Below, in pieces: positions 261 through 58,884 of a stretch of 64,000 bases of DNA (positions are counted from its first letter, which is position 1; each line of letters begins with the position of its first letter). This stretch comes from Candidatus Saccharimonadota bacterium. Its GTDB lineage: Bacteria > Patescibacteriota > Saccharimonadia > Saccharimonadales > DTSZ01. The DNA lies in contig DTSZ01000001.1 of assembly GCA_012965045.1 (NCBI GenBank), positions 591,629-655,628 on the forward strand. Reading direction: 5' to 3'. The position numbers were made by a program, and so were the translations under genes. The notes beneath the pieces are model-generated. The model made no database searches. It had not been told where the DNA came from and saw only the letters and a program-made list of their open reading frames with translations.

Positions 261-2165
261 TTAGTCTAACATCGCCCACAGAGCACTCTTATGACCAGCA
301 AAATTTGCCGATGAGTAGCTTGTTAATTCAACGATCATGCTTGGTATGCCTTTGTTGTCGACCGTCCACTCCTCGAAACTTCCGGTAACGTTGTAGTTAA
401 AAGTAGACTGCGAGCTTTGACCAGTGGTGTTTCTGTAACCAGCTAGTTTAGCGTAGGTAGCGGCATAGGTTTCAGAAATATTCCCGACGTCGCCAATTAC
501 GACCCCGCCAACCGCGTGGAATGACAACAATAACCGTGGATTCATCTTTTCTACATAACTAGCTAATGCTTGTGCAGCTGGCTCGCTTAGCGGCTCTGTG
601 CCGCCAGCGCCTTTCAGTATGCCGTTTTTACTTTCGGTGTCCGCCTGCCAATCTGCAGTCGGGAAATTACGGTTGAGGTCAACATTTGCCGAGTTATTGC
701 GCGTGCCCGCAGCAAGGCCGTCTGCGTTTACATTAGGCACAATAACTACTCTTTTACCGCTATATCGACTTGGGTTAGCCTCTAGTTCATTCACCCACAA
801 ATCAAGTATTTTTCTAGAGCTACTTTCGTTACCATGCAGTCCGCCCACAAACATAGTTACGGGACCAGAGTTGCCAAAGCTATACGACAAAATAGAGCGG
901 CCTTGTCGAGTGCTGCCGATCGTACTGACACTGTGGCAGGTCGTGCGGCCTGTAAAACTCCAGTCTTCAGTAGCTGCTATACCGTATTTGCTCACTATTC
1001 CCGGCTTTACTGTAATGGTAAATTGCTGACATTTTGGTAGGCTACGCAACTTCACGGTGGCTTGAGTGGCGTTCTTTTTATTAATAGTAGCAGTGCCACC
1101 ACTAAACGAAATAAGGTCGCTTAACGCTACGTCATCACTAAGCTCTTGGTCAAATGTAAGGATAATAGTTTCATTAGAACCGACCTTAATGGTGCTGGCG
1201 CTAACACTCGCTACCGCAGGACCGCCAGACAACGTAAACCGTACTTGATATGGTTCTGCTAACGAACTGCCGTCCAAAGATTCTGCTTCAACAAGCCTAA
1301 TAATGTAGTCGCTGTTACGTGTTAATTCTTCGCTGGGGGTAATAATAGCTTTGGTGTCTTTGTAGGTTAGGCTGCCTTTTACGGCCGTCTCTTCGTCGCC
1401 ATCGACTTGCATTAAATAGGCCTCAGCTGCATGCAGCTCTTTATCAGTTTCAACTGTAAAGTTAGCTGGTTTATCATAAATTATTTGACCTTCGGAAACT
1501 GACGAACCGATAACTGCTATGGCTGGTAGGGTTTCGAGCTCGCCTTCGCTGACTCTTACTTTTTGCCCCGAAAAACCACGCAGTAATTTGTAGTCATATT
1601 CCGCGCCTTGATCGAGGCTAAGCGTTGAGACATCACACACCACAGCTGACGACGTTGGCGTACATTCAGTTGCTTTGTCATCGACCACGATTTCATATTC
1701 ATGCAAGTTGTCGGTTTGGCTAAGCGGTATTTTTATAGTCTTTTTGGTTGGAATTGGTTTTTTAAAAACAGACAAATTTGCCTGTGGTAGCCCAGGCACT
1801 TCAACTGCGAAGTTTTTTTGCGCAAAAAAGCCGCCCCACGGAGCACTCGCCACTGTGCTCGTACCAGGTTTTGGTGCTTGTTTAGGGCTTACGCATGTTT
1901 CGCTTGAAAAAATCGGGATACTTCCCAGCTGCTTATATTCACCATGGGTTACTTCAAAATAATCATCGTCAACTGTTTCATGGATAGTCGGAAAAAGCGT
2001 AAACTTTTCAATACAGTTACCGCCTGCATAGCTAAAATCAATTGTTTTTGCAGGTAAAAATATAACTAAATAGATACTCACAGCACATACTGCTGCAAAC
2101 ACTACGTACACCAACATAGGCAAGTCGGCAGCCCAAAAATAGGCGTCCTTTATTTTTTGTCTCAC
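261..2165 (-). CDS. Membrane-anchored M14-family zinc carboxypeptidase with N-terminal Ig-like/beta-sandwich repeats (gamma-D-glutamyl-meso-DAP peptidase-like)
   Basis: N-terminal TM helix (LPMLVYVVFAAVCAVSIYLVIFL). The C-terminal domain carries the M14 zinc ligands: HGNE in FVGGLHGNESS and a second His in LSFHAVGG. The long Ser/Thr-rich middle region has an Ig-like character. Confidence 0.7.
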   Translation of the reverse strand: MRQKIKDAYFWAADLPMLVYVVFAAVCAVSIYLVIFLPAKTIDFSYAGGNCIEKFTLFPTIHETVDDDYFEVTHGEYKQLGSIPIFSSETCVSPKQAPKPGTSTVASAPWGGFFAQKNFAVEVPGLPQANLSVFKKPIPTKKTIKIPLSQTDNLHEYEIVVDDKATECTPTSSAVVCDVSTLSLDQGAEYDYKLLRGFSGQKVRVSEGELETLPAIAVIGSSVSEGQIIYDKPANFTVETDKELHAAEAYLMQVDGDEETAVKGSLTYKDTKAIITPSEELTRNSDYIIRLVEAESLDGSSLAEPYQVRFTLSGGPAVASVSASTIKVGSNETIILTFDQELSDDVALSDLISFSGGTATINKKNATQATVKLRSLPKCQQFTITVKPGIVSKYGIAATEDWSFTGRTTCHSVSTIGSTRQGRSILSYSFGNSGPVTMFVGGLHGNESSSRKILDLWVNELEANPSRYSGKRVVIVPNVNADGLAAGTRNNSANVDLNRNFPTADWQADTESKNGILKGAGGTEPLSEPAAQALASYVEKMNPRLLLSFHAVGGVVIGDVGNISETYAATYAKLAGYRNTTGQSSQSTFNYNVTGSFEEWTVDNKGIPSMIVELTSYSSANFAGHKSALWAMLD

Positions 2166-2285
2166 AACGTTTTCGTTTTTAAGTGTTAAACATTAGTATT
2201 TTAGCATTATCAATGTTTTGTAGCAAAATGATAAAAATTCATAATTGAGCCGGGGGTGAGAGCCTGCCTGCCGCAGGTAGGGACT

Positions 2286-2474
2286 TGGTCGGGGTGAGAG
2301 GACTTGGTCACGTTCCGCGACCCCGAAACTTCACGTTTAAAAACTAGTTTTTAACGGAAGGTTTCCTTGCGAAATGACATTTAGTCATTTCTCACCTCCG
2401 ACTCACTCCGTGAGTTAGGAGTCACAAGTCTTCTCAAGCATTAAAAAAACTGCCCAAATGGACAGTTTTTTTAA
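2286..2474 (-). ncRNA. Unit A: tRNA-3'-end-associated structured element. It ends (minus sense) in a 21-nt copy of the tRNA-Pro T-arm/acceptor/CCA.
   Basis: 2286..2306 (tggtcggggtgagaggacttg) is identical to 2475..2495 of the tRNA-Pro gene. The body is paralogous to unit B, with compensatory hairpin changes. A terminator (2443..2472) separates it from the tRNA. Confidence 0.4.
2443..2472 (-). terminator. Intrinsic terminator downstream of tRNA-Pro
   Basis: Hairpin actgccca-aa-tggacagt flanked by an A-run and a T-run, so it can act in both directions. Confidence 0.6.
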
Positions 2475-2551
2475 TGGTCGGGGTGAGAGGACTTGAACCT
2501 CCGACCTCACGGTCCCAAACCGCGCGCGCTAGCCAACTGCGCCACACCCCG
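2475..2551 (-). tRNA. tRNA-Pro (anticodon TGG), CCA encoded
   Basis: Manually folded cloverleaf. Acceptor CGGGGTG/CACCCCG with C1-G72, D-stem GCGC, anticodon stem CGCGG/CCGTG, loop TTTGGGA, T-arm GGAGG-TTCAAGT-CCTCT. Length 77 nt. Confidence 0.9.
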
Positions 2552-27427: not shown

Positions 27428-27606
27428 GGGGTGTGGTGGGACTCGCCAAAAGTATTTTTCTGGTGAAAAATCTTTTCGATCGTACTCTAGCGCCGGCGCA
27501 CTCCGGTCTTGCGAGAAGCAGACATGCATTTCTCACCCAACTGGGTTCGAGTCATTAAAACTGTCCAATTTAAAACCCGCCAAAAGGCGGGCGTTAAATT
27601 GGAGGG
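27428..27606 (-). repeat. Unit C: orphan copy of the tRNA-associated element, with no adjacent tRNA
   Basis: Shares with unit B the segment ccaatttaaaa-cccgcc-a(aaa/ttc)ggcgg-...-aattggaggg (terminator plus junction) and a tRNA-T-arm-like end ggcgagtcccac (27436..27447). Confidence 0.35.
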
Positions 27607-27644: not shown

Positions 27645-28151
27645 CTACTCAACGTTAAAAGTTAGAATGTTCGATTCGAAACCTTGCCATTGGAGTTTTG
27701 CTTGATGTTCGCCCGGTGGCAATTTTAATTCGTCACTAAATCCGATGTAATCACTGCTTATATCGTGAGAAAAGTCATCTACCAGCGTAAAAGGGTATTC
27801 ATACGTGATGGTTTTGTTTGAGCCGATATTTATATCTGTAAGCGCATCACCACAGGCATAGTACAGACCAATTGGTTGTTCATTTATATAAAACGTACCC
27901 TCGGTACATGTGGAAGAAAACGTATATGTTTTTGCACTTGTTGTTGGGTTGTTAATGAATGACTTGAAGGTAATTGATTCACCTATTGAATAGATGCTTT
28001 TGTGTAATCCTAGTTGTATATTCAACTCCCCATTCGTAGGTTCAGATACATTCTCATGTTTGACAAGCTTAGTCATTACTAAAAATAAACCAACTCCAGC
28101 TACTATTGCAATCAATAAAGCAATGATAGTAATTTTAACTTTTTTACTCAT
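27645..28151 (-). CDS. Hypothetical membrane-anchored/secreted beta-rich protein
   Basis: 168-aa ORF with an N-terminal TM/signal anchor (ITIIALLIAIVAGVGLFLVM) and a Ser/Thr/Tyr-rich beta-sandwich-like remainder. Bracketed by units C and B. Confidence 0.55.
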   Translation of the reverse strand: MSKKVKITIIALLIAIVAGVGLFLVMTKLVKHENVSEPTNGELNIQLGLHKSIYSIGESITFKSFINNPTTSAKTYTFSSTCTEGTFYINEQPIGLYYACGDALTDINIGSNKTITYEYPFTLVDDFSHDISSDYIGFSDELKLPPGEHQAKLQWQGFESNILTFNVE

Positions 28152-28255
28152 GACTTAACTATAACAAAAATGCTACAACATTAGTTGCGGCATTCTCATT
28201 TGAGTTATGATTTTGACCATATAAAAACACCTACGGCGAGATAGGTGTTTTTATA

Positions 28256-28441
28256 TGGAGGGTCCAGTGGGACTCGCCCACATTCTGCGGGCCCGAAACT
28301 ACGTCTTTCAAAACAAGTTTTGAAGAGTAAGTTTCCTTGCAAACTGCTCCCAGCAGTTTTCACCCCCGACACTACGTGTCGTGGCTTCGACCCAGTAAAA
28401 CTCTCCAATTTAAAAACCCGCCATTCGGCGGATTCATAAAT
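28256..28441 (-). ncRNA. Unit B: tRNA-3'-end-associated structured element. It ends (minus sense) in a 21-nt copy of the tRNA-Lys T-arm/acceptor/CCA and has terminators on both sides.
   Basis: 28256..28276 (tggagggtccagtgggactcg) is identical to 28442..28462 of the tRNA-Lys gene. An intrinsic terminator (28411..28432) lies between the tRNA and the unit. A second hairpin plus T-run (28222..28250) lies after the unit. The internal hairpins covary with unit A. Confidence 0.45.
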
Positions 28442-28518
28442 TGGAGGGTCCAGTGGGACTCGAACCCACGACACCCTGCTTAAAAGGCAGGTGCTCTAAC
28501 CAGCTGAGCTATGGACCC
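28442..28518 (-). tRNA. tRNA-Lys (anticodon TTT), CCA encoded
   Basis: Manual cloverleaf. Acceptor GGGTCCA/TGGACCC, D-stem GCTC/GAGC, anticodon stem CCTGC/GCAGG, loop CTTTTAA, T-arm GTGGG-TTCGAGT-CCCAC. Length 77 nt. Confidence 0.9.
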
Positions 28519-29140: not shown

Positions 29141-30451
29141 TTATGCTTTTTTAGTTTTCACTGGAGTGACTTCGATTTTTACGGCCTGTTCAAGCCGGCG
29201 AATATCTGCCAGTAGATCCGATCGTGATTTATTGTGCAACGTAATGTTAAAGACGCTCTTGCCGCCGTTTTTAGCAAATTTACACATGTCACCCTTGGTT
29301 TTATTTATTTTTAAATTATAAAACGAGGTTAAAGCACGTGCTTTGTTCATTCCATTAATCTTTTCAAGTCGGCCCTCTTTGTTTGAGAAAAACTTCATGC
29401 TAGCTGTATAGCCTTGTCGTTTCTTTTTAATTATTGGCTTTCGACCAGTCCGAACCAAAAGGTCGTTATAGGCATGGTCAAATCCGTATGATAATTGATA
29501 CAGGTTCTGACGAAATCCACCCATCCGGCACGCTATTTCGACTATTTTAAAGCCCGTTAGTTCAGTCTTTATTACCTCAACATGAACTATTGTGTTGCGT
29601 AGTCCTAAAGCGTGAACGCCTTTTGCAGCCACCTGTTCCATGTCTTTAATTTTACGCGCCAGCAACTTAACTGGGGTCATTTGCTTGTAGCCAAAGAAAT
29701 CATCAAAACCAATCGCCCGGCCTGTCTTTATGTGTACCGGCGGCACAAAATCTACACGACCAGTATTATCAACGTAGCCATCTATTGAATACATAGTGCC
29801 TTCTAGAAACTGTTCGATTAGTACTTTTGGTTCACCACGCCCAGCATATGACTTATGTGCTGCCTTAACCTGTCGTAGGGTACGTTTTAAATTAGATACT
29901 AACTCTTCTTCGTGGTAGCAAATACTCACCAATACACTGGCGGCTAACCCGCTTGGCTTAATTACCAGCGGAAAACCAACTTTTCGTTTGATTTTTGAAA
30001 TAGTCTTGTCGCTAATGTCGGTAGCAATGGTATAAGCCGGTGTAATTTTTTTATCGTATTCGGTAAAACGTCGACGCATCAGTAATTTGTCGGTCGACCA
30101 GTTAATCGACGTTTCAGTCGGCGTTAATGTATATGGGACATGGGGTATAACCCGCTTAAAATTCTCCAACAAGTCCTCTGACCGACAAGTGATAGCAATT
30201 ACGCGGTGTAAGTATGGTAGAAGTGCTTCATGAATTTGTTTTGGTGATTTAAGATTTATTTCAATTTTTGTAAAATCTTTTTGAAAAACACTCTTATTAG
30301 CTTTTTGTGACTTATCAATAAGCCAAACACGTTGCAAAGGACGGCGGAGTTTTTTTTCAAGCTTATCAATGGCAATACTTAATGAATCACCCACATCTTT
30401 GCTGTCGGTGGCTAGTACAATGACGGTGTCTCTCGAAAATTGCTTCTCCAT
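29141..30451 (-). CDS. ATP-grasp domain protein (carboxylate-amine ligase superfamily)
   Basis: Central FPLVIKPSGLAASVLVSICYHEEEL and HVEVIKTELTGFKIVEIACRMGG segments fit the ATP-grasp B and C subdomains. Preceded by a pre-ATP-grasp-like N-domain. Confidence 0.65.
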   Translation of the reverse strand: MEKQFSRDTVIVLATDSKDVGDSLSIAIDKLEKKLRRPLQRVWLIDKSQKANKSVFQKDFTKIEINLKSPKQIHEALLPYLHRVIAITCRSEDLLENFKRVIPHVPYTLTPTETSINWSTDKLLMRRRFTEYDKKITPAYTIATDISDKTISKIKRKVGFPLVIKPSGLAASVLVSICYHEEELVSNLKRTLRQVKAAHKSYAGRGEPKVLIEQFLEGTMYSIDGYVDNTGRVDFVPPVHIKTGRAIGFDDFFGYKQMTPVKLLARKIKDMEQVAAKGVHALGLRNTIVHVEVIKTELTGFKIVEIACRMGGFRQNLYQLSYGFDHAYNDLLVRTGRKPIIKKKRQGYTASMKFFSNKEGRLEKINGMNKARALTSFYNLKINKTKGDMCKFAKNGGKSVFNITLHNKSRSDLLADIRRLEQAVKIEVTPVKTKKA

Positions 30452-30633: not shown

Positions 30634-32508
30634 ATGCGCTTACCAAAAAATGTAATATCACCACTTGGGTTGTCTCGTTACCAAGAACATGCCGCTCTGG
30701 TATATTCGTCAAAGCGCCGAGGCCACGGAAAATTAGGTCTAGCTCTCAGTGAAGACGGTCTTCATTTTAACGAGTCCGTTGATGCTCCGGTAATATTCAC
30801 CGGTCAAAACAAAACGGAATCAATTGCTGACACCAGCGACTACCGTTTTGCAAAAGTGGCTCACGACCACCTGCTTACCTACACCAAAAATGGCCGCTTA
30901 GTCATTGCACGAGAAGAAGAATCCGGCGACCTCTGGGACTTAGCAATCTGGAAAACACTACGAACAGGTAACCCACGTGCTACTAACGGCATGTTTGTGC
31001 CAGAGTATAAATACAACAATCAATACGTCTTGTTCTACAACACCAGCAGCATTAACTTTGCAGTCACAAAAGACTTTAAAGACTGGCACTCGCCATACCG
31101 CCCAGTTTTAGAGCCACGCCGACATAACTTTGATAACAAGTCTCTAAAAATAGTTTCAGTTGCAAACATTAGTAGTGGAATTGCTGTGTTGTACGAGTCG
31201 CAGTCAATGCGTAAGCGACAGCAAACTATTCATGTTGGGTTTGCTGTATTTTCGCGCCAAAACCCTGGTAAGTTAATCTGGCGCAGCGAAGGGCCGTTAT
31301 GGGCTGCCACAAACGCCGGTAGGTCAAAAATTGAACTCCTTGGTGCAGACATACAAAACGATTCTATTCGTTTATACGGTAGCTCTGTCTCCAACGGTCT
31401 ATTTACCGTCGACCTCCAACAACCGCTTAAGCTAGACGAAGTTAGCCGACCAAAATTCGAACTAGAGCGTCATCATAAAAACCCGTTGCTTAGCCCAGAA
31501 GGTGGCGAACACTGGGAGTCGTCAGGGGTATTTAACCCAAGCGTCGTCCACCACGAAGGCAAGGTGCATATTTTGTACCGTGCTGTTGACCCGTACGGCG
31601 TTAGTCATGTCGGTTATGCCAGCACAACCGACGGGTCAGAAATAGACTATCGGCACAACGAACCTTGCTACTGGCCACGCGCATGGTTTGAAGCTGGTAG
31701 AGGCAAACGGCCATATAAAGAATGGAATAAAGCCTTTGGTTCCGGCGGCGGCTGGGGCGGTTGCGAAGACCCTAAGGCAACACTTATGGATGACAAAGTC
31801 TACATGACCTATGTTGCCCACGACGGCAGCCCCTATTTGCGTTTATGTATAACATCAATTGATATAGATGATTTTGTAAATCATCGGTGGGATAAATGGG
31901 CATGGCCAAAAGTAATTAGTAACCCTCAATTTGGCCCACACGTTAATCCACCATTTGGAGTTCGTGTTATAAAAAGTGGAATAATCTTGCCAGAGAAAAT
32001 TAACGATAAATATGTGATTTTCTTCAAAGAACCGCCACATGTTGGCATTCATTATATTGACGATATCGAACGACTTGGTATTGATGAAGAGCTCGAAGCT
32101 CATGACTTCATATACACTCGCCCCGGTCATTGGGACAGTCAAAAACTCTCGATGGGATCGACTCCGATTTTAGTAAATGAAGGTTGGCTGGTTATATACC
32201 ACGCCGTCGATAAACGCGAAGGTCACAAATATAAAATTGGCGCTATGTTACTTGATAAGAACGATCCAAGTAAGGTATTGCGGCGCACCAATACCCCAAT
32301 TCTTGAACCTGATGCTGACTATGAAAACAACTGGAAACCTGGCGTTGCCTACCCATCTGGTGCGGCTATCATCGGTGATCAACTTCATGTGTATTACGGC
32401 GGTGGAGACCGACACGTCTGCGTTGCAACAACTCCCCTGCAAGAGTTCATGGACCATCTAATGAACGAAGAAGAAATTCACCTAACTGCAGAAGTCACGG
32501 TTAGTTAG
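30634..32508 (+). CDS. Tandem two-domain GH130-like (DUF377, beta-mannoside phosphorylase family) protein; the N-terminal copy is degenerate
   Basis: The C-terminal half has the GH130 hallmarks NPSVVHHEGKVHILYRAVD, GCEDPKATLMDDKVYMTYVAHDG and HVYYGGGDRHVCVATT. The N-terminal half is a diverged copy that lacks CEDPR. Confidence 0.7.
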   Translation: MRLPKNVISPLGLSRYQEHAALVYSSKRRGHGKLGLALSEDGLHFNESVDAPVIFTGQNKTESIADTSDYRFAKVAHDHLLTYTKNGRLVIAREEESGDLWDLAIWKTLRTGNPRATNGMFVPEYKYNNQYVLFYNTSSINFAVTKDFKDWHSPYRPVLEPRRHNFDNKSLKIVSVANISSGIAVLYESQSMRKRQQTIHVGFAVFSRQNPGKLIWRSEGPLWAATNAGRSKIELLGADIQNDSIRLYGSSVSNGLFTVDLQQPLKLDEVSRPKFELERHHKNPLLSPEGGEHWESSGVFNPSVVHHEGKVHILYRAVDPYGVSHVGYASTTDGSEIDYRHNEPCYWPRAWFEAGRGKRPYKEWNKAFGSGGGWGGCEDPKATLMDDKVYMTYVAHDGSPYLRLCITSIDIDDFVNHRWDKWAWPKVISNPQFGPHVNPPFGVRVIKSGIILPEKINDKYVIFFKEPPHVGIHYIDDIERLGIDEELEAHDFIYTRPGHWDSQKLSMGSTPILVNEGWLVIYHAVDKREGHKYKIGAMLLDKNDPSKVLRRTNTPILEPDADYENNWKPGVAYPSGAAIIGDQLHVYYGGGDRHVCVATTPLQEFMDHLMNEEEIHLTAEVTVS

Positions 32509-33721
32509 CCGGTTGTATTGTCTTCCATAGTTTTACTTGCAACCAATACGTTGCTAGTCCTCCAAAAGTTACAATCGCCCACACAGTACGCAAAAATAGC
32601 TCACTGTTGTCTAAGATATGAATAAGCCCAATAAAGAAGCCTAAGCCAACTAGTCGTGTAGAAAACTTAATCACCTCAAGAAGATAATTAAGTTGAAGTG
32701 TATTTCTTTGAACATCACTACCAAGCACAGCCTCGCGTAAGCTAATGTCTAAATCGTCATCTATGGGCTTCTCTATTGTCTGTGCGCCTTTTTCAATAAC
32801 AGCTCTGCCAATCAGGGCAGGCGCTTGCCAGGACGCCACTAAACCAAGTGTTGCTGCCACCCTAATTGAATGTAAGTAATACCCAAGCCGCAAGTTACCT
32901 TTTAGCTCCACATGGCGCCGTACATAGACAACTATCGCTGCAATTAAGGCAACTCCACTTACAAAAACACCGTAGCCAAAAATGCTACCTAGTATTAAAA
33001 ACGGAGCAATCTTCCAAAAATGACTTTGTAATTCATCCTGTAATGTATCAATGAAATAAATTCGCAAAAAGCGTTTCCATTCTGGGTGATTTTTTAGGCT
33101 ATTGAGGAAGGATTTTGATAAAAGCGGCGCTTTTGGTGGAATAGTATTGTTTTGATACGTCTTAAATAGACTCAGGAAGCTTAACAGGGCGGCAACAATC
33201 AAGAACGCTCGGTAGCCCACGACAAAATCCAGCAAAAACCCAATTATCAGTGGCAAAAATACACTCATGATTGTTTCGTAGCTTCCAGAAACTTGAAATA
33301 TATAGCTGCGCTGTTTGCTTTTCATTTCTTTTACAGCAACATAGTGTGAGCTTGTGTGATAAAAACCTGAGTCTATTCCTCGCATCACAGACAGCACCCA
33401 AAACCATGTAAACGGGTCTTGCTCAAGTAGTGGCCAGATTAAAATAGAAATAAATATAAGTACTGTTCGAAGATACCGCCCGTATACCCAAACGACACCA
33501 TAGCCTTTTTTGCGAAGTAGAACATTGGCAACAGTAATGCCTACCATGGTTGCACACGCTATAACTAATTTGTCTAAAAATACTAAAGTTAAAGAACCGC
33601 TCAAGACAAATAGAACAACACTGTAGAGTTCTCCCAAAATACCCCATATAAACAAGGCTGTCATTCTGTTATAAAAAAATTGCCGAACGACGTCGGCTTG
33701 AGACTTTAGCTCTAAAAACAT
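32501..33721 (-). CDS. Polytopic membrane protein, putative MFS-type or similar transporter
   Basis: 406 aa with about 10-12 hydrophobic helices. Lies between the two GH130-like genes. Confidence 0.45.
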   Translation of the reverse strand: MFLELKSQADVVRQFFYNRMTALFIWGILGELYSVVLFVLSGSLTLVFLDKLVIACATMVGITVANVLLRKKGYGVVWVYGRYLRTVLIFISILIWPLLEQDPFTWFWVLSVMRGIDSGFYHTSSHYVAVKEMKSKQRSYIFQVSGSYETIMSVFLPLIIGFLLDFVVGYRAFLIVAALLSFLSLFKTYQNNTIPPKAPLLSKSFLNSLKNHPEWKRFLRIYFIDTLQDELQSHFWKIAPFLILGSIFGYGVFVSGVALIAAIVVYVRRHVELKGNLRLGYYLHSIRVAATLGLVASWQAPALIGRAVIEKGAQTIEKPIDDDLDISLREAVLGSDVQRNTLQLNYLLEVIKFSTRLVGLGFFIGLIHILDNSELFLRTVWAIVTFGGLATYWLQVKLWKTIQPAN

Positions 33722-33764
33722 GACATTAGCATAGCAGCATCACATCATAGAAGCTGCTACAATA

Positions 33765-35687
33765 GTGTTTATGTTTACAGTAACCAGAAATAAAAAGAAT
33801 CCAATCATAAAAAGTAATAACGACGAGCCGTGGCGTGCGTTGGCAGCGTTTAACTGTTCGCCGGCTAAAGTAGGCGACTCGCTTCATTTAGTATTTCGGG
33901 CAATGACCGACGAAGCCCTGTACAAGGGTCACAACGTCGAGCTATCGACCATAGGACATGTAATGGTTGACCCTCAGACACACCATTCCATCGGAGAATA
34001 CAAAGTCCTTATACAGCCCGAAGAAGACTGGGAGATGTATGGCTGCGAAGACCCGCGGGTAACTAAAATTGATGACACATACTATATTTTCTACACCGCT
34101 CTGAGTGGTTTTCCATATTCGGCTGAAAATATTAAATGTGCCGTGGCGACCACCAAAGACTTTAAGACAATCGACAGCCGGCAACTGGTAACACCGTTTA
34201 ATGCTAAGGCCATGGCGCTTTTTCCAGAAAAAGTCGACGGTAAATGGACTGTTATTTTGACTGCAGATAGCGACAAGCCACCTTCTAAAATGGCTATAGC
34301 TCAAAGTGACAATTTTGATGATTTTTTAAATCATGACTGGTGGGCAAATTGGTATGAAGAAGTTGAACACCATAATATTGACCTGCGCCGCGTGGATACT
34401 GACCACTGCGAAGTTGGCGCACCTCCAATAAAAACTGATGCGGGCTGGCTCCTTATCTACAGCCACATCCAAGATTACTTTACCGACGACAAGGTTTTTG
34501 GAATCGAAGCTGTTTTATTAGACAAAGACAACCCACGAAAAATTATCGGCCGTACTCGCTACCCATTTATGGTGCCAGAAGAAAGCTACGAACAATATGG
34601 ACAACTGCCAGACATCGTTTTTCCAAGCGGAGCTATGTTGGATGGCGACATCCTAACAGTTTTTTATGGAGCTGCCGACACAACTTGCGCCTCTGCTAAA
34701 TTGCGGCTGTCACACCTGCTTGAATCTATGCAGATGGAAGGAAAAAGTTACGCGAAACGCTACAGTGGCAATCCGATTCTACTCGCTAAAGAAGAAAATT
34801 ACTGGGAAAGCAGCTATGTCCTAAATCCTTCAGCAATAGAAATTGACGGCGAAATAAATATTCTTTACCGAGCGCTTGGGCCTGACAACACATCTGTTTG
34901 CGGCCTAGCAATTACAAAAGATGGCTACACAATTGACGAGCGTCTTGATGAGCCAATCTACATACCGCGGGCTAAATTTGAGTCAAAGCTTAAACCACCA
35001 GACGGCATATCTGGCTGCGAAGACTTGCGGGCCCAAATTATCGGTGATCGAATTTTTGTAACCTACACAGGCTACAATGGCGTTGACCCTCCGGCTGTCG
35101 CAGCAAGTTCGATTTCTATTGAAGAATTTAAAAACCGCAAGTTTCAATCTTGGACCGAGCCTCACCTAATTAGTCCGGTTGGCATCGACGACAAAGATGC
35201 TGCAATTTTTAGTGAAAAAATAAACGATCAGTACCTTGTATTTCATAGAATTGACCACCATATATGCGCCGACACCCTACCAGAACTAGATTTTGAAAAG
35301 CATCAGCTTGACCGCTGTATCCAGGTTATGGGACCGCGTAAAGGCATGTGGGACAGTCTAAAAATTGGAATCAATGGTCCGCCGATAAAAACCGAAAAGG
35401 GTTGGTTGCAGTTCTACCACGGCATTAACGAGCATCACCACTACCTTATGGGGGCCGCGTTGCTAGATCTTAAAGATCCAACAAAAATCATTGGGCGATC
35501 TGCTATGCCAATAATGGAACCTGAAACCCAGTGGGAACTTGAAGGTTGGATAGACAATGTTATTTTTAGTTGCGGTCAAGTTGTTCGCGACGACACAATT
35601 TTTATTTATTATGGTGGCGCTGACACAGTTGTGGCTGTGGCAACATTAAGCTTGTCGGAGCTTTTGAGCCAACTCAACGAGGCTTAG
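33765..35687 (+). CDS. Tandem two-domain GH130-like (DUF377) glycoside phosphorylase-family protein; both copies intact
   Basis: N-terminal half: YGCEDPRVTKIDDTYYIFYTALSG ... TVFYGAADTTCA. C-terminal half: NPSAIEIDGEINILYRALG ... GCEDLRAQIIGDRIFVTYTGYNG ... FIYYGGADTVVAVA. Paralog of 30634..32508. Confidence 0.75.
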   Translation: MFMFTVTRNKKNPIIKSNNDEPWRALAAFNCSPAKVGDSLHLVFRAMTDEALYKGHNVELSTIGHVMVDPQTHHSIGEYKVLIQPEEDWEMYGCEDPRVTKIDDTYYIFYTALSGFPYSAENIKCAVATTKDFKTIDSRQLVTPFNAKAMALFPEKVDGKWTVILTADSDKPPSKMAIAQSDNFDDFLNHDWWANWYEEVEHHNIDLRRVDTDHCEVGAPPIKTDAGWLLIYSHIQDYFTDDKVFGIEAVLLDKDNPRKIIGRTRYPFMVPEESYEQYGQLPDIVFPSGAMLDGDILTVFYGAADTTCASAKLRLSHLLESMQMEGKSYAKRYSGNPILLAKEENYWESSYVLNPSAIEIDGEINILYRALGPDNTSVCGLAITKDGYTIDERLDEPIYIPRAKFESKLKPPDGISGCEDLRAQIIGDRIFVTYTGYNGVDPPAVAASSISIEEFKNRKFQSWTEPHLISPVGIDDKDAAIFSEKINDQYLVFHRIDHHICADTLPELDFEKHQLDRCIQVMGPRKGMWDSLKIGINGPPIKTEKGWLQFYHGINEHHHYLMGAALLDLKDPTKIIGRSAMPIMEPETQWELEGWIDNVIFSCGQVVRDDTIFIYYGGADTVVAVATLSLSELLSQLNEA

Positions 35688-35690
35688 ACC

Positions 35691-37046
35691 GTGCCACGGG
35701 CAAAGAAAAAACAACCAACATCGACGACCACTACGAAAACAATTGAACAAGCTAAAAAAGTCTTAGACATAAATTTTAAAGATGGCTACACTATGCCATC
35801 AAAAGTACTCTACCCGCACCAATGGTTATGGGATTCGTGTTTTCATGCAATTGGCCTACGGCACCACCGTCCAGATCGTGCACTGGAAGAAATCAAACTG
35901 TTACTACGGGGCCAATGGCCAAATGGTATGGTGCCGCATATGATTTTTAGTGGCGCCAAGCACGGACATCAACGCTACAATATTTGGAAGTCACATGTCT
36001 GTGACGACTGTGTTGTCGGCCTGAGGACCAGTGCAATCACGCAACCGCCTGTCATTGCTTGGGCGTTCGAAAAGGTAGTAAATAGCCTGCCCAAAAAAGA
36101 TCAAAAAGCAGCTATCGAAAAATACCTGCCGCAGATAATTCGCTATCATCAGTGGCTGTATGCAGACCGTGACCCTGACCAAACAGGTCGCATTGTAATT
36201 ATTCACCCGTGGGAAAGTGGCCTCGACAACAACCCAGCACTAATGGCAGCACTGCGTGAATGTTTCCCTGTGAATACCAGTGAAAAAATATTTTTGACCA
36301 ACCCTTTTGTACGCGGTGTATACCACAAGCTTCGTAAAGACATTCAAGTCACGAGCGCTGCCGAGCGAAGTCGAACTGTTGAAAACTGGATGTTTGCACG
36401 ACTTATTGCCCGGTATCGTCGCAAGCTCTATAAAACCGAAGCCATCTTATATGATAAAAATAGCTTCGTTGTTGAGGATGTTAGCTTTAACGCAATATTT
36501 ATTCGGTCTAATGCCGCTATAAAAACTCTGGCGAAAAAAATAAAACTCACACTGCCAGACGACTTAACTCAAGCAATGGACCGTAGCGACGCAGCGTTTG
36601 CTGATTTCTGGAACGACGACAAACAAGCATATTTATCGCGCAACTGGCACACCAAACAATCAATTCCAATTGAAACGATCGAAGAATTACTGCCACTCAT
36701 AACTTCTATTATCCCCAAATCAAATGCTAAAAAAATTGTCACAAAACTTGAATCAAATAACTTTTTCACACCTAAGCCGGTATCCACAAACAACACAGCG
36801 CGCGACGACTACGACCCTATTCGTTATTGGCAAGGCCCAGTATGGGTAAATATGAACTGGATGATTATCGAAGGACTAAAGAACTACGGCTATACCAAAA
36901 AAGCTAAAGACCTCGCCAATTCAACAATTAAATTAGTCGAAGAAAATGGCATATGGGAGTACTACAATTCGCAGACTGGCATGGGCCACGGAATCAGCAG
37001 TTTTTCCTGGACCGCAGCTTTGTATTTAGACTTAATTAATTCCTAA
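35691..37046 (+). CDS. (alpha/alpha)6-barrel glycoside hydrolase, GH63/MGH1-like (putative)
   Basis: YPHQWLWDSCFHAIG near the N-terminus of the barrel region is the W-WDS-F hallmark of the GH63/GH37/MGH family. Length 451 aa. Confidence 0.55.
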   Translation: MPRAKKKQPTSTTTTKTIEQAKKVLDINFKDGYTMPSKVLYPHQWLWDSCFHAIGLRHHRPDRALEEIKLLLRGQWPNGMVPHMIFSGAKHGHQRYNIWKSHVCDDCVVGLRTSAITQPPVIAWAFEKVVNSLPKKDQKAAIEKYLPQIIRYHQWLYADRDPDQTGRIVIIHPWESGLDNNPALMAALRECFPVNTSEKIFLTNPFVRGVYHKLRKDIQVTSAAERSRTVENWMFARLIARYRRKLYKTEAILYDKNSFVVEDVSFNAIFIRSNAAIKTLAKKIKLTLPDDLTQAMDRSDAAFADFWNDDKQAYLSRNWHTKQSIPIETIEELLPLITSIIPKSNAKKIVTKLESNNFFTPKPVSTNNTARDDYDPIRYWQGPVWVNMNWMIIEGLKNYGYTKKAKDLANSTIKLVEENGIWEYYNSQTGMGHGISSFSWTAALYLDLINS

Positions 37047-47295: not shown

Positions 47296-49116
47296 TTAGT
47301 CCTTTTTAAGTAACACTGTGAAAGCTTCGGGCGGTATTTCTACTTTACCGAATTTTTTCATTCGTTGTTTACCAGCTTTTTGCTTGGCCCATAATTTCTT
47401 TTTACGAGACACGTCGCCGCCGTATAAATGACCGGTAACATTTTTGCCCAAGGCTTTAATATCTTCACGAGCGAGTATTTTACTGCCAACCGCTGCTTGC
47501 AAAGCAACTTCAAATAGCTGACGCGGAATAACGTCTTTGAGTTTTTCCAACATTTTACGGCCGGTACTTTCTGCTTCTGATTTATGAGTCATAATACTTA
47601 AACTGTCCATGCGCTCACCACCTACTAAAATATCTAAACGTACTAAATCCTGGGCTCTATAATCAGCAATTTCATAGCTTAGTGTGCCGTAGCCGCTGGT
47701 AGTGCTTTTTAGTTGGTCATAAAAATCTGTTAGCACATTTGCCAGTGGTGCCTCAAAGCTTACTGTGGCTAAATGCTCGTCGACATAGCTAATATTTTTC
47801 TGGTGGCCCCGAGTTGAAACAATTAACTGCACAACATTCCCAACATAATCTACGGGTACAATAATTTCACCGCGAATCCACGGCTCACGAATTTCTGCGA
47901 TATGCGTCGGATCAGGCAGGTTGCTGGCCGAACGAATGGTTTGCTCTTCGCCACTGGCCATTACAACGTGGTAGTCGGTCGACGGATTAGTCACAATCAC
48001 CTCAACCCCTTGGTGGCGCTCAATTCGTTCTTGCACAATTTCAAGATGCAACAGACCTAAAAACCCAACCCTAAACCCAAAGCCAAGAATTTGTGAATTT
48101 TCTGGTTCATACACTAAAGCTGCATCATTTAAACTAACTTTTTCTAGTGCGTCTTTGAGGTTTGGGTAGTCGTCGGCGCTAGCTGGAAACACTCCAGCAT
48201 ACACAAATGGTATAGCTTGTTTATAGCCAGGCAAAGCCTCTGCAGTGGTTCCGTGTAATACAACTGTGTCGCCAACGCGAGCGTCGGCAACTGTTTTAAA
48301 GTTGGTAACAATATAGCCAATTTCGCCCGCCTTGAGGCTTGGTGTTGGCACTTGTTTCGGACTAAAAAAGCCAGTAATTAACGCCCGTCCGTCAGCTTTT
48401 GTGCCCAGCATGGTTATGTCGGCGTTCTTTTTAATCTCGCCAGCCACGACTTTTACATACAGCACTACACCTTGATATTCATCCAAAAACGAATCAAAAA
48501 CCAATGCTTTGGCGGTTTCGTCTTTTAGTGGTTGTGGCGGCGGAACGCGCTCAACAACAGCCTTTAAAACGGCCTCAACATTTTGGCCAGTCTTTGCGCT
48601 AATTTCTATAATTTCTTCCCGCTTGCATCCCAGTAAACTAATAACTTCTTTACTAACGCGGTCAACATCGGCCGCAGGCAAGTCTACTTTGTTTAGTACC
48701 GGAATAATCTCTAGATCTTGTTCAAGCGCTAAATACACATTCGCCAGTGTCTGAGCCTGTATACCTTGACTCGCGTCTACGACAAGGATTGCACCTTCCA
48801 CAGCTGCCAAGCTACGACTAACTTCGTAACTAAAGTCGACATGGCCGGGAGTGTCAATCAAGTTGAGTTGATACTCAATTTGATTGACGCCATCTTCCAT
48901 CTTCTTTCTTCCATCTTCCGAATGACGGTACGTCATTCTAACCGGCTGCAATTTTATGGTAATACCTTTTTCCCGCTCCAGATCCATCTGGTCAAGTAGC
49001 TGTTCTTTCATTTCACGCTTGGTAACCGTCCCAGTAATTTCCATAAGCCGATCCGCCAAGGTCGACTTACCGTGGTCAATGTGGGCAATAATGCAGAAAT
49101 TTCTAATATTTTCCAT
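47296..49116 (-). CDS. lepA: Translation elongation factor 4 (LepA)
   Basis: MENIRNFCIIAHIDHGKSTL G-domain start and the LepA-specific C-terminal domain. Internal Met preferred over the track start at 49140. Confidence 0.95.
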   Translation of the reverse strand: MENIRNFCIIAHIDHGKSTLADRLMEITGTVTKREMKEQLLDQMDLEREKGITIKLQPVRMTYRHSEDGRKKMEDGVNQIEYQLNLIDTPGHVDFSYEVSRSLAAVEGAILVVDASQGIQAQTLANVYLALEQDLEIIPVLNKVDLPAADVDRVSKEVISLLGCKREEIIEISAKTGQNVEAVLKAVVERVPPPQPLKDETAKALVFDSFLDEYQGVVLYVKVVAGEIKKNADITMLGTKADGRALITGFFSPKQVPTPSLKAGEIGYIVTNFKTVADARVGDTVVLHGTTAEALPGYKQAIPFVYAGVFPASADDYPNLKDALEKVSLNDAALVYEPENSQILGFGFRVGFLGLLHLEIVQERIERHQGVEVIVTNPSTDYHVVMASGEEQTIRSASNLPDPTHIAEIREPWIRGEIIVPVDYVGNVVQLIVSTRGHQKNISYVDEHLATVSFEAPLANVLTDFYDQLKSTTSGYGTLSYEIADYRAQDLVRLDILVGGERMDSLSIMTHKSEAESTGRKMLEKLKDVIPRQLFEVALQAAVGSKILAREDIKALGKNVTGHLYGGDVSRKKKLWAKQKAGKQRMKKFGKVEIPPEAFTVLLKKD

Positions 49117-58298: not shown

Positions 58299-58772
58299 TT
58301 AAAATGGCTTAGGTAAAACCCCGACACTAAACTGATCTGGCTCTGCTTTTAAGCAGGTGACAGCTACCTGATCGTGCAATGTCACTAAGTCGACTACGCC
58401 TTCGGCCCCAGGTAAATACAGATCGTCGTGAGTTTTTGGATGTTGAATCTCAATTACTGATTTTTCTGGATCAACAACCGTTATTTTTGAGCTACAAACG
58501 TACAAACCTTCATCGATTGGATTAATACCAAAGTGTTGCGTGAAATAGTTTATGATTTTTTCAGTTCTAAATCGTTCATTAAAAGTAACAATTACAGGTC
58601 GTGTCTCGCCAGCTTCAAGCTGGCCGTCAAGTAGTCGCAGAGCCTTCACCGTTCTTTGTCCTCTATTTTCACGCCACTGTTGTTCTCGGGCAGAGCGATT
58701 AGTGCCTAAAAAAATACCGCCTTCGCGGCGGTTTTGGGGTTCGATAACTGGTGGGTCTAGTATATCACTCAT
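58299..58772 (-). CDS. Hypothetical protein
   Basis: 157-aa ORF. No motif I recognise. Confidence 0.45.
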   Translation of the reverse strand: MSDILDPPVIEPQNRREGGIFLGTNRSAREQQWRENRGQRTVKALRLLDGQLEAGETRPVIVTFNERFRTEKIINYFTQHFGINPIDEGLYVCSSKITVVDPEKSVIEIQHPKTHDDLYLPGAEGVVDLVTLHDQVAVTCLKAEPDQFSVGVLPKPF

Positions 58773-58807: not shown

Positions 58808-58884
58808 TGGTAGCGGCAGGTGGAATTGAACCACCGACCTCAGGCTTATGAGTCCTGCGCTCTAACCATCTGAGCTATGCCGCC
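58808..58884 (-). tRNA. tRNA with CAT anticodon (elongator Met or Ile2/lysidine; not initiator-like)
   Basis: Manual fold. Acceptor GGCGGCA/TGCCGCT (G1-U72 wobble), D-stem GCTC/GAGC, anticodon loop CTCATAA, T-arm GGTGG-TTCAATT-CCACC, CCA encoded. Confidence 0.8.

Follow-up and report, generated by a model that had tools for sequence, protein, structure and literature searches.

On the minus strand of the 64,000-nucleotide stretch analysed here (the window, to which all positions refer unless a locus number is given), the tRNA-Lys(UUU) gene of a Candidatus Saccharimonadota bacterium is followed by a short unit, unit B, in which a densely structured body precedes an exact copy of the 3' end of the same tRNA. 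The question which this locus raises is whether such a unit is an independently transcribed small RNA gene with a built-in tRNA mimic, as an original prediction made from the sequence had proposed, a remnant of integration, or an element of another kind. Unit B belongs to a family of elements of ~90 nucleotides (nt) which is spread across the Saccharibacteria, and this three-hairpin element with conserved junction bases is undescribed as far as Rfam 15 and the searched literature show. We read it, with slightly more than even confidence, as a non-autonomous mobile structured element which targets tRNA loops and persists in spare partial tRNA copies.

Anatomy of the unit at tRNA-Lys

Read along the minus strand, the locus consists of the following parts.

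28442..28518, minus strand: tRNA-Lys(UUU), intact, CCA encoded (ARAGORN; Rfam RF00005, 73.9 bits)
28408..28441, minus strand: terminator-like hairpin 1, with A-tract, CCGCC/GGCGG stem and U-tract (fold; inverted repeat I1)
28376..28407, minus strand: X', a degenerate antisense copy of tRNA-Lys positions ~44-76 (TGGAGAGTTTTACTGGGTCGAAGCCACGACAC), without body
28363..28375, minus strand: a turn (GTA) and the 5' flank of the insertion, which copies the variable loop and T-stem 5' strand in sense orientation
28277..28362, minus strand: body B, composed of UGAAAA, H2, GCAAGG, the long hairpin H3, GG, and H4 with a GAA triloop and a conserved G.U pair
28256..28276, minus strand: X'', an exact 21-nt copy of tRNA-Lys C56..A76, the 3' flank of the insertion (direct repeat D1)
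28217..28258, minus strand: terminator-like hairpin 2 and T-run, formed by a 17-bp palindrome without mismatch that takes in CCA/TGG (inverted repeat I2)

Much of this layout had been foreseen. The tRNA gene and the hairpin with a U-run after it are present as predicted, 28256..28276 repeats 28442..28462 without a mismatch (21/21) up to exactly the CCA, and the sequence in between is indeed structured, the segment 28222..28441 folding at -87.9 kcal/mol (z -5.55), a value equalled by none of 200 shuffled sequences. Hairpin 1 with its U-run (-15.6 kcal/mol, z -3.9) is the tRNA's own terminator. At the distal end the hairpin with a T-run proposed at 28222..28250 exists, but instead of 8 bp it is a 17-bp palindrome that takes in the CCA (arms 28217-28233 and 28242-28258, -23.8 kcal/mol, z -10.3). 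A simple terminator scan flagged neither hairpin of unit B, the label 'terminator' denoting only a hairpin with a T-run. Such palindromes of CCA, A-tract, GC hairpin, T-tract and TGG make up the tRNA terminators at many loci of these genomes, and with the CCA included in the extended palindrome the 3' end of a tRNA could pair into its own terminator.

X' was recognized by an inverted repeat (I4, 15 nt at 93%) and by alignment to tRNA-Lys. As this antisense copy lies directly 3' of terminator 1, the terminator forms the centre of a long imperfect palindrome which extends from the 3' part of tRNA-Lys into X', and in the minimum-free-energy fold of unit B X' pairs with the 3' copy X''. The 5' flank of the body, GTGTCGGGGG (28363..28372), matches its tRNA-Lys counterpart GTGTCGTGGG at 8 of 9 bases and ends at G53; X'' spans the 3' part of the T-loop, the 3' strands of T-stem and acceptor, and the CCA. 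Body B occupies the exact place of T54/T55 in a partial tRNA-Lys copy that covers positions 44-53 and 56-76.

With this anatomy the proposed tRNA mimicry has to be abandoned. The bases gggcccg, previously taken for the 5' strand of an acceptor mimic, are the 5' strand of H4, and the supposed T-stem (GTGGG/CCCAC) is mutually exclusive with H4, which has covariation support from 111 sequences. A 3' tRNA minihelix, whose acceptor and T-stem 5' strands both belong to H4, is not formed by the conserved fold, and unit A, the sister unit at tRNA-Pro(UGG), has no T-arm mimic. The 21-nt copy simply continues the neighbouring tRNA past a T-loop insertion point, as seen in 83 units of the family; it has a matching 5' flank across the body, and 26 mirrored units upstream of tRNAs lack a 3'-end copy. 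Independent transcription, which had been deduced from a terminator on either side, is likewise not borne out, as terminator 1 belongs to the tRNA, the terminator after the 3' copy is suggested by two related loci (L024 and L028, see below) to be the tRNA's original one, and no sigma-70-like site was found upstream of body B, where a TTGAA in the antisense T-loop is without a usable -10 element. Rightly, however, the unit had been held to be more than a plain or passive att scar, being a conserved structured element shared with tRNA-Pro, and the open reading frames (ORFs) 28205..28474 and 28245..28439 are most likely the artefacts they were suspected to be, as they overlap the tRNA and the structured element and match no family. 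One public annotation calls a 67-amino-acid gene across the unit B region, without Pfam hit.

A structured element family beside tRNA genes

That units A and B share one architecture and a common fold, as predicted, was established by a covariance model (R1) built from 55 bodies, which matches body A with 98.6 bits and body B with 97.6 bits (28275..28366, E 6.5e-22); the fold of body B as a single sequence is that of the family consensus. The two units are homologous, with the same layout and 75% mean column identity, H4 reading GCCCGCA-GAA-TGTGGGC in B and GGTCGCG-GAA-CGTGACC in A, and a motif common to both occurs twice in the window compared with 0.03 occurrences expected. A scan of 185,579 species genomes with the pattern GCAAGGAAAC-N27-35-AGTTTCGGG gave at least 120 loci, which among the matches listed belong, bar a few chance matches, to metagenome-assembled genomes (MAGs) of Candidatus Saccharibacteria or unclassified Patescibacteria; matches outside the Patescibacteria (L014, L025, L029, L032, L036, L056 and L073) lack an upstream GTGAR, are missed by the model and were set aside as chance. 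Context was analysed in 8-kb loci around the copies (L numbers), 705 kb in total, in which R1 finds 113 copies at E<1e-3, almost all in Saccharibacteria/Patescibacteria MAGs.

Covariation in this family is massive. Helix cells are paired in 97.3% of cases versus 78.0% in shuffles, none of 500 of which reached the observed value, and 27-47% in controls with slid partners; 32 of 34 base pairs change on both sides, with a covariation score of 0.495 versus 0.149. H4 itself, with 97.5% of cells paired and changes on both sides in seven of seven pairs, keeps its G.U pair in 97 of 111 sequences, a conservation which assigns the structure to the strand with the tRNA's sense. Among the models of Rfam 15 those for tRNA alone reach the gathering score, and at E-values up to 10 only chance-level matches overlap the bodies. 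The unit gave no BLAST match to plasmids and phages, and the nine matches in a pattern scan of viral contigs were all chance matches in coding DNA. Nothing on a three-hairpin element was found in the literature searched, the nearest paper treating group I introns at position 35/36 (PMC13011429). Identity of the body with a group I or group II intron was rejected, given that every host tRNA copy is truncated beside an intact tRNA and that the body has no Rfam intron match.

Eighty-three non-nested units have a same-strand tRNA within ~140 nt, 57 of them lying downstream of it, ~100 nt after the tRNA as in the window, and 26 upstream, 55-90 nt before it; at least 20 different anticodons are represented among these tRNAs. 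Whether upstream or downstream, the body always lies on the tRNA's strand and has sequence of the adjacent tRNA on either side. In downstream units the 5' flank is short (44-53) and the 3' flank reaches the CCA; in upstream units the 5' flank extends from base 1 to G53, and the 3' flank is short (56-62) and without acceptor 3' strand, after which many of them hold a short antisense piece spanning the insertion point. Every host tRNA copy is partial, with an intact tRNA beside it. The insertion point lies in the T-loop in 72 of the 83 units and otherwise in the anticodon loop (Pro-GGG, Gln), in the D-loop (Glu) or at position 26/27 (Pro, Gly, Ser), never in a stem; a further unit (L066) has a T-loop 5' flank and no matching 3' flank. 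The 5' flank always ends in G, mostly as GGG or AGG, and the 3' end of the body is the covarying H4 stem, without a fixed motif.

The two tRNA-derived repeats differ in their preservation. Of 58 downstream units, 30 have a 3' copy identical at 21/21 positions; the antisense copy is on average ~65% identical, with its acceptor part usually lost (acceptor identity 0.40-0.60), as might be expected under selection against long perfect palindromes. Where antisense turns to sense, loops of 3-4 nt stand at the variable loop. The limits of the repeats mostly coincide with the ends of the mature tRNA: identity ceases 0-2 nt after the CCA in 23 of 32 downstream units, and in most upstream units the repeat starts at +1 with unrelated sequence before it. 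The repeat continues into the terminator in five units and includes the promoter in L042 and L113. L024 and L028 have the same terminator after the 3' copy and different terminators beside the intact tRNA, and this shared distal terminator suggests that the distal copy together with its terminator is the original 3' end.

The arrangement around the tRNA can be more elaborate. Two identical tandem units with a period of 182 lie upstream of tRNA-Gln in L042 (7586..7977), arrays of successive units follow a truncated tRNA-Gln end in L071 (4258..4600), two bodies stand in inverted orientation in L075 (3584..3957), and a single tRNA-Glu has one unit on either side in L077 (3030..3412). Downstream of tRNA-Lys, Ser, Ser and Pro, respectively, L052, L057, L117 and L044 show the same scaffold with T-loop inserts that R1 misses, among them an insert of 26 nt and another bounded by an 11-nt direct repeat. 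Neither the fetched loci nor a metagenome scan yielded a scaffold whose T-loop is uninterrupted, and the seven body-less tRNAs with a 3' repeat all hold another insert, diverged or apparently unrelated. The one metagenome match to a body-less scaffold (L134) proved to be an unrelated tRNA array, with four tRNA-like genes without encoded CCA at 1126..1653 on the minus strand, one of which is called as tRNA-Pyl(CUA) and one with a four-base anticodon.

Proposed mobility and rival explanations

In five loci (L050, L058, L109, L112 and L114) a body lies cleanly inside another body after GUUUCGGG, the outer H4 resuming 1-2 bases later, so that one or two target bases are lost and no target duplication is present. 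Sharing a tRNA does not make bodies from different genomes more alike (0.735 identity, versus 0.724 for bodies at different tRNAs), and a body and its nearest neighbour have the tRNA in common in 8 of 81 cases only; vertical orthology per tRNA was rejected on these figures. Pairs within a genome average 0.80 versus 0.72 overall, with 0.86-0.92 reached between different tRNAs. The unit of tRNA-Pro(UGG) is downstream in the window and upstream in L020, L060 and L086, and in five genomes whose tRNA-Lys(UUU) genes have different T-stems the flanks match the own tRNA in each. The pattern of identities and flanks fits repeated insertion and turnover and not one ancient insertion.

The preferred reading of a mobile element builds on the observed family and its structure, the flanks taken from the local tRNA, the loop-only positions, the nesting and the within-genome similarity. 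The body would insert strand-specifically after a G at a tRNA loop position, usually in the T-loop between G53 and T55/C56, removing one or two target bases and making no target-site duplication, and its conserved three-hairpin fold would be what the mobility machinery needs. Because insertion destroys the tRNA, copies would persist only in a spare partial copy beside an intact gene. At tRNA-Lys, the 21-nt repeat would be the 3' remainder (56-76) of such a spare copy and the short matching flank before the body its 5' remainder, and X' after terminator 1 would be an uninterrupted inverted copy of the same region. The restriction to loops points to recognition of a folded single-stranded nucleic acid, presumably lagging-strand-template DNA or RNA, by an enzyme encoded elsewhere. 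In keeping with a non-autonomous element, families of transposases, integrases and reverse transcriptases are neither recurrent among the 148 ORFs nearest to the copies nor present among the 28 larger ORFs scanned in the window; the 25 most frequent Pfam families among the 148 ORFs are all housekeeping families, the clusters formed by 520 neighbouring ORFs comprise histidine kinases, pilins and the like and no recurrent mobility cluster, and no tnpA or tnpB, expected for an IS200/IS605-type element or a TnpB guide RNA, adjoins a copy in the surrounding loci. The sense-antisense-sense arrangement may derive from fold-back or template switching tied to insertion, and pairing with both flanks of the body may be what preserves the antisense segment near the junction. 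On the plus strand of the window the GC skew is negative, which implies that the minus-strand tRNA genes are co-oriented with replication; their sense strand would then be the lagging-strand template, a placement compatible with, but no proof of, a single-stranded DNA route.

Several points weigh against mobility. Copies within a genome are only 65-92% identical, so that a recent copying burst has not occurred, and no enzyme was identified. An empty site was not found, a metagenome scan for a junction of tRNA-Lys with terminator 2 having given nothing. The 3' junction is not base-exact, T55 being kept in some units and lost in others, and the invariant blocks of the alignment are partly imposed by the search pattern, which the helices are not. 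The origin of the antisense segment fits no known transposition chemistry, and the strong conservation of the junction bases would also fit a host-functional RNA.

As the main alternative, the body might move at the RNA level, a route that we consider rather unlikely. The body RNA would be joined into the loops of tRNA transcripts by a reverse-splicing-like reaction or by cleavage and ligation, and the chimera would be copied into DNA beside the parent gene, the antisense segment being a snap-back product or a splint which aligns the flanks for excision or ligation. A mobile RNA or RNA-dependent element that invades folded tRNAs in this way, with its antisense splint, is no better than doubtful. 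The confinement of insertions to positions that are single-stranded in the folded cloverleaf, the repeats that stop at mature tRNA ends and the tight antisense-to-sense turns at the variable loop agree with it, and turn loops of 3-4 nt resemble self-primed second-strand synthesis. Yet neither the surroundings of the copies nor the window showed a reverse transcriptase, the antisense copy is without body and was therefore not copied from a chimeric molecule, and the repeats which run into a terminator or include a promoter exceed the mature tRNA. The CCA of the copies says nothing on an RNA origin, as it is gene-encoded here, and according to PMC13011429 the Patescibacteria have no group II introns, which also counts against the RNA route. 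Equally doubtful is a generalised form of the original prediction, a host small RNA gene expressed beside tRNAs and spread by local duplication without transposition, with the tRNA-derived ends as signals for processing or stability or as means of tRNA sensing or regulation. It would account for conserved junction bases and covarying helices, which are typical of functional RNAs, for a hairpin with T-run after the unit in B and many relatives and for the often perfect 3' copy, but it is contradicted by a minihelix which conflicts with H4 and is absent in A, by upstream units without acceptor 3' strand, by nested copies and insertions outside the T-loop, by the lack of an orthology signal per tRNA and of a promoter-like site before the body, and by an antisense acceptor part too diverged to be complementary.

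The 3'-end direct repeat from T-loop to CCA, perfect here and in unit A, is the classic signature of integrase-mediated integration at tRNA genes, and the units could be miniature, integrase-less remnants of it with the body as a conserved sequence next to attP. The terminators of L024 and L028, by which the intact gene seems to have been restored by the inserted sequence, and the cargo between two units in L026 and in the window point the same way; nonetheless this origin is improbable, as no integrase recurs among the 148 neighbouring ORFs or occurs in the window, the body between T-stem 5' strand and T-loop would split the presumed att core site, one and the same body is found at 20 or more tRNAs, at the D-loop and positions 26/27 and inside itself, and covarying hairpins with a conserved G.U pair are unlike protein-binding arm sites. 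Least credible of all is a cis-regulatory element resembling a riboswitch or attenuator, in which the antisense segment would switch between the tRNA and the copy and thereby control read-through or folding. The antisense segment can pair with either the tRNA 3' half or the copy, and the body has a multi-helix junction with conserved purines; however, downstream units sit after a strong terminator, units occur on either side of tRNAs and in some loci nested or in tandem, and the same scaffold holds unrelated inserts.

Among known systems, REP/REPIN repeats, which are mobilised in trans by RAYT (HUH) transposases, and palindrome-associated elements derived from IS200/IS605 come close to a mobile body: like it, they are short, hairpin-rich and non-coding, have many diverged copies per genome, are strand-specific, and presumably serve in single-stranded DNA form as substrates of an enzyme whose gene lies elsewhere. 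As in IS200/IS605 elements, the nested junctions and the flanks of the body show neither target duplication nor terminal inverted repeats, and the same holds for REP/REPIN. However, the target of the body is a loop in tRNA sequence and not an extragenic tetranucleotide, and a partial tRNA copy with its antisense partner surrounds every body. IS200/IS605-type elements have a fixed 4-5 nt motif 5' of the insertion and a conserved cleavage motif after the right-end hairpin; in the family the 5' flank shares its terminal G, mostly as GGG or AGG, and a covarying stem seems to stand where the cleavage motif would be. No HUH gene was seen in the loci analysed. A miniature inverted-repeat transposable element was rejected, since the body ends, TGAGAA... 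and ...GTGAC, are not inverted repeats and the 21-nt repeat is no duplication flanking the body, the 5' flank being a different segment of the tRNA.

Genomic islands and prophages integrate into the 3' part of tRNA genes via tyrosine integrases and have in common with the units a direct repeat that starts in the T-loop or anticodon loop and extends to the tRNA 3' end, the preservation of an intact gene and the possibility of tandem arrays with cargo; the unit differs from them by its size of only ~190 bp without integrase, by a conserved part that is a structured element splitting the T-arm, by one body with many tRNA specificities and by the mirrored form with 5' copies. Group IIC introns insert directly behind a DNA stem-loop that they recognise (terminators, attC), so that in both cases the target seems to be read in single strand as a structure with few bases and in an orientation-specific manner, but the body has ~90 nt, no intron domains, no Rfam match and no encoded protein, and it disrupts the target copy instead of being spliced from a working gene. 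The eukaryotic tRNA-derived short interspersed elements (SINEs) and tRNA-gene-targeted retroelements such as TRE of Dictyostelium are likewise small non-autonomous repeats tied to tRNAs, and the upstream units resemble their 'tRNA head plus body' make-up; in contrast to these, the units are bacterial, their tRNA part is the sequence of the local gene, and neither a reverse transcriptase nor a poly(A)-type tail was seen.

Saccharibacteria have genomes of ~1 Mb and single-copy tRNA genes, a large fraction of which still carry the element. Although its covariation matches that of established RNAs in strength, this widespread structured family is missing from Rfam and the searched literature, and it explains spurious ORF calls and 'att-like' repeats of tRNA fragments in the genomes of this lineage of the candidate phyla radiation (CPR). 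If the element is mobile, its targets are the loops of the tRNA cloverleaf, which points to an enzyme that recognises folded single-stranded DNA or RNA, and to a process that regularly makes partial sense-antisense-sense duplications at tRNA genes. Should the RNA-level route be true, it would be a new, tRNA-structure-specific class of bacterial mobile elements in the reduced genomes of Saccharibacteria. The element can also serve as a marker with which to follow the genome dynamics of an uncultivated lineage.

Further units and genes of the window

Besides unit B the window contains its sister unit A and an older, degenerate unit C with a body of a different subfamily.

2246..2551, minus strand: unit A (R1 match at 2305..2398)
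2475-2551, minus strand: tRNA-Pro(UGG) of unit A
2441-2474, minus strand: terminator of unit A
2410-2440, minus strand: X' of unit A
2395-2409, minus strand: turn and sense 5' flank of unit A
2307-2394, minus strand: body A
2286-2306, minus strand: exact 21-nt copy of the tRNA-Pro 3' end
2246-2285, minus strand: extra degenerate tRNA-Pro 3'-end copy, split by an 18-nt hairpin
27645..28151, minus strand: ORF of 168 amino acids between units B and C, with an N-terminal hydrophobic stretch and no Pfam family
27428..27606, minus strand: unit C
27600-27606, minus strand: tRNA-Lys 3' remnant CCCTCCA (7 nt) of unit C
27568-27599, minus strand: terminator of unit C
27542-27567, minus strand: X'-like segment of unit C
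27446-27535, minus strand: variant body of unit C
27428-27445, minus strand: pseudo 3' flank of unit C, CGAGTCCCACCACACCCC

The extra 3'-end copy at tRNA-Pro reads AGTCC...CTCTCACCCCCGGCTCA, its hairpin consisting of CTACCTGC, GG and CAGGCAGG. Along the minus strand, tRNA-Lys is followed by unit B, the 168-amino-acid ORF, the 7-nt tRNA remnant and unit C. The start of unit C, with tRNA remnant and terminator, is 79% identical to the start of unit B over 66 nt; R1 gives unit C only 14.8 bits, and L112 has a body of the same subfamily. The 168-amino-acid ORF is possibly cargo, or else a gene trapped between two rearrangement rounds, and in L026 a comparable pair of units surrounds 2.7 kb of cargo with an S24 LexA-like gene. 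The locus of this window ORF is found in identical form in 11 metagenome contigs, and the window itself is derived from hydrothermal-vent metagenomes.

Two of the three tRNAs of the window carry units, the one without being tRNA-Met (58808..58884); the corresponding tRNA-Met carries a unit in L038, L039, L043, L061, L067, L119 and L130. An ORF of 157 amino acids without Pfam family (58299..58772, minus strand) starts ~35 nt after the tRNA-Met of the window. A weak R1 match at 48872..48945 on the minus strand (17.6 bits, E 0.015) lies inside the lepA coding region and is probably due to chance. No mobility gene was found among the 28 larger ORFs scanned in the window, which is core chromosome with genes for RecA, RuvB, type IV pili, ComEC, DnaK/J, LepA, MurJ, FtsH and RNase Y. 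A cluster at 30634..37046 comprises two GH130 mannoside phosphorylase-like genes, an MFS-like transporter gene and an MGH1-like glycoside hydrolase gene, and is adjoined by a gene for an ATP-grasp ligase (29141..30451).

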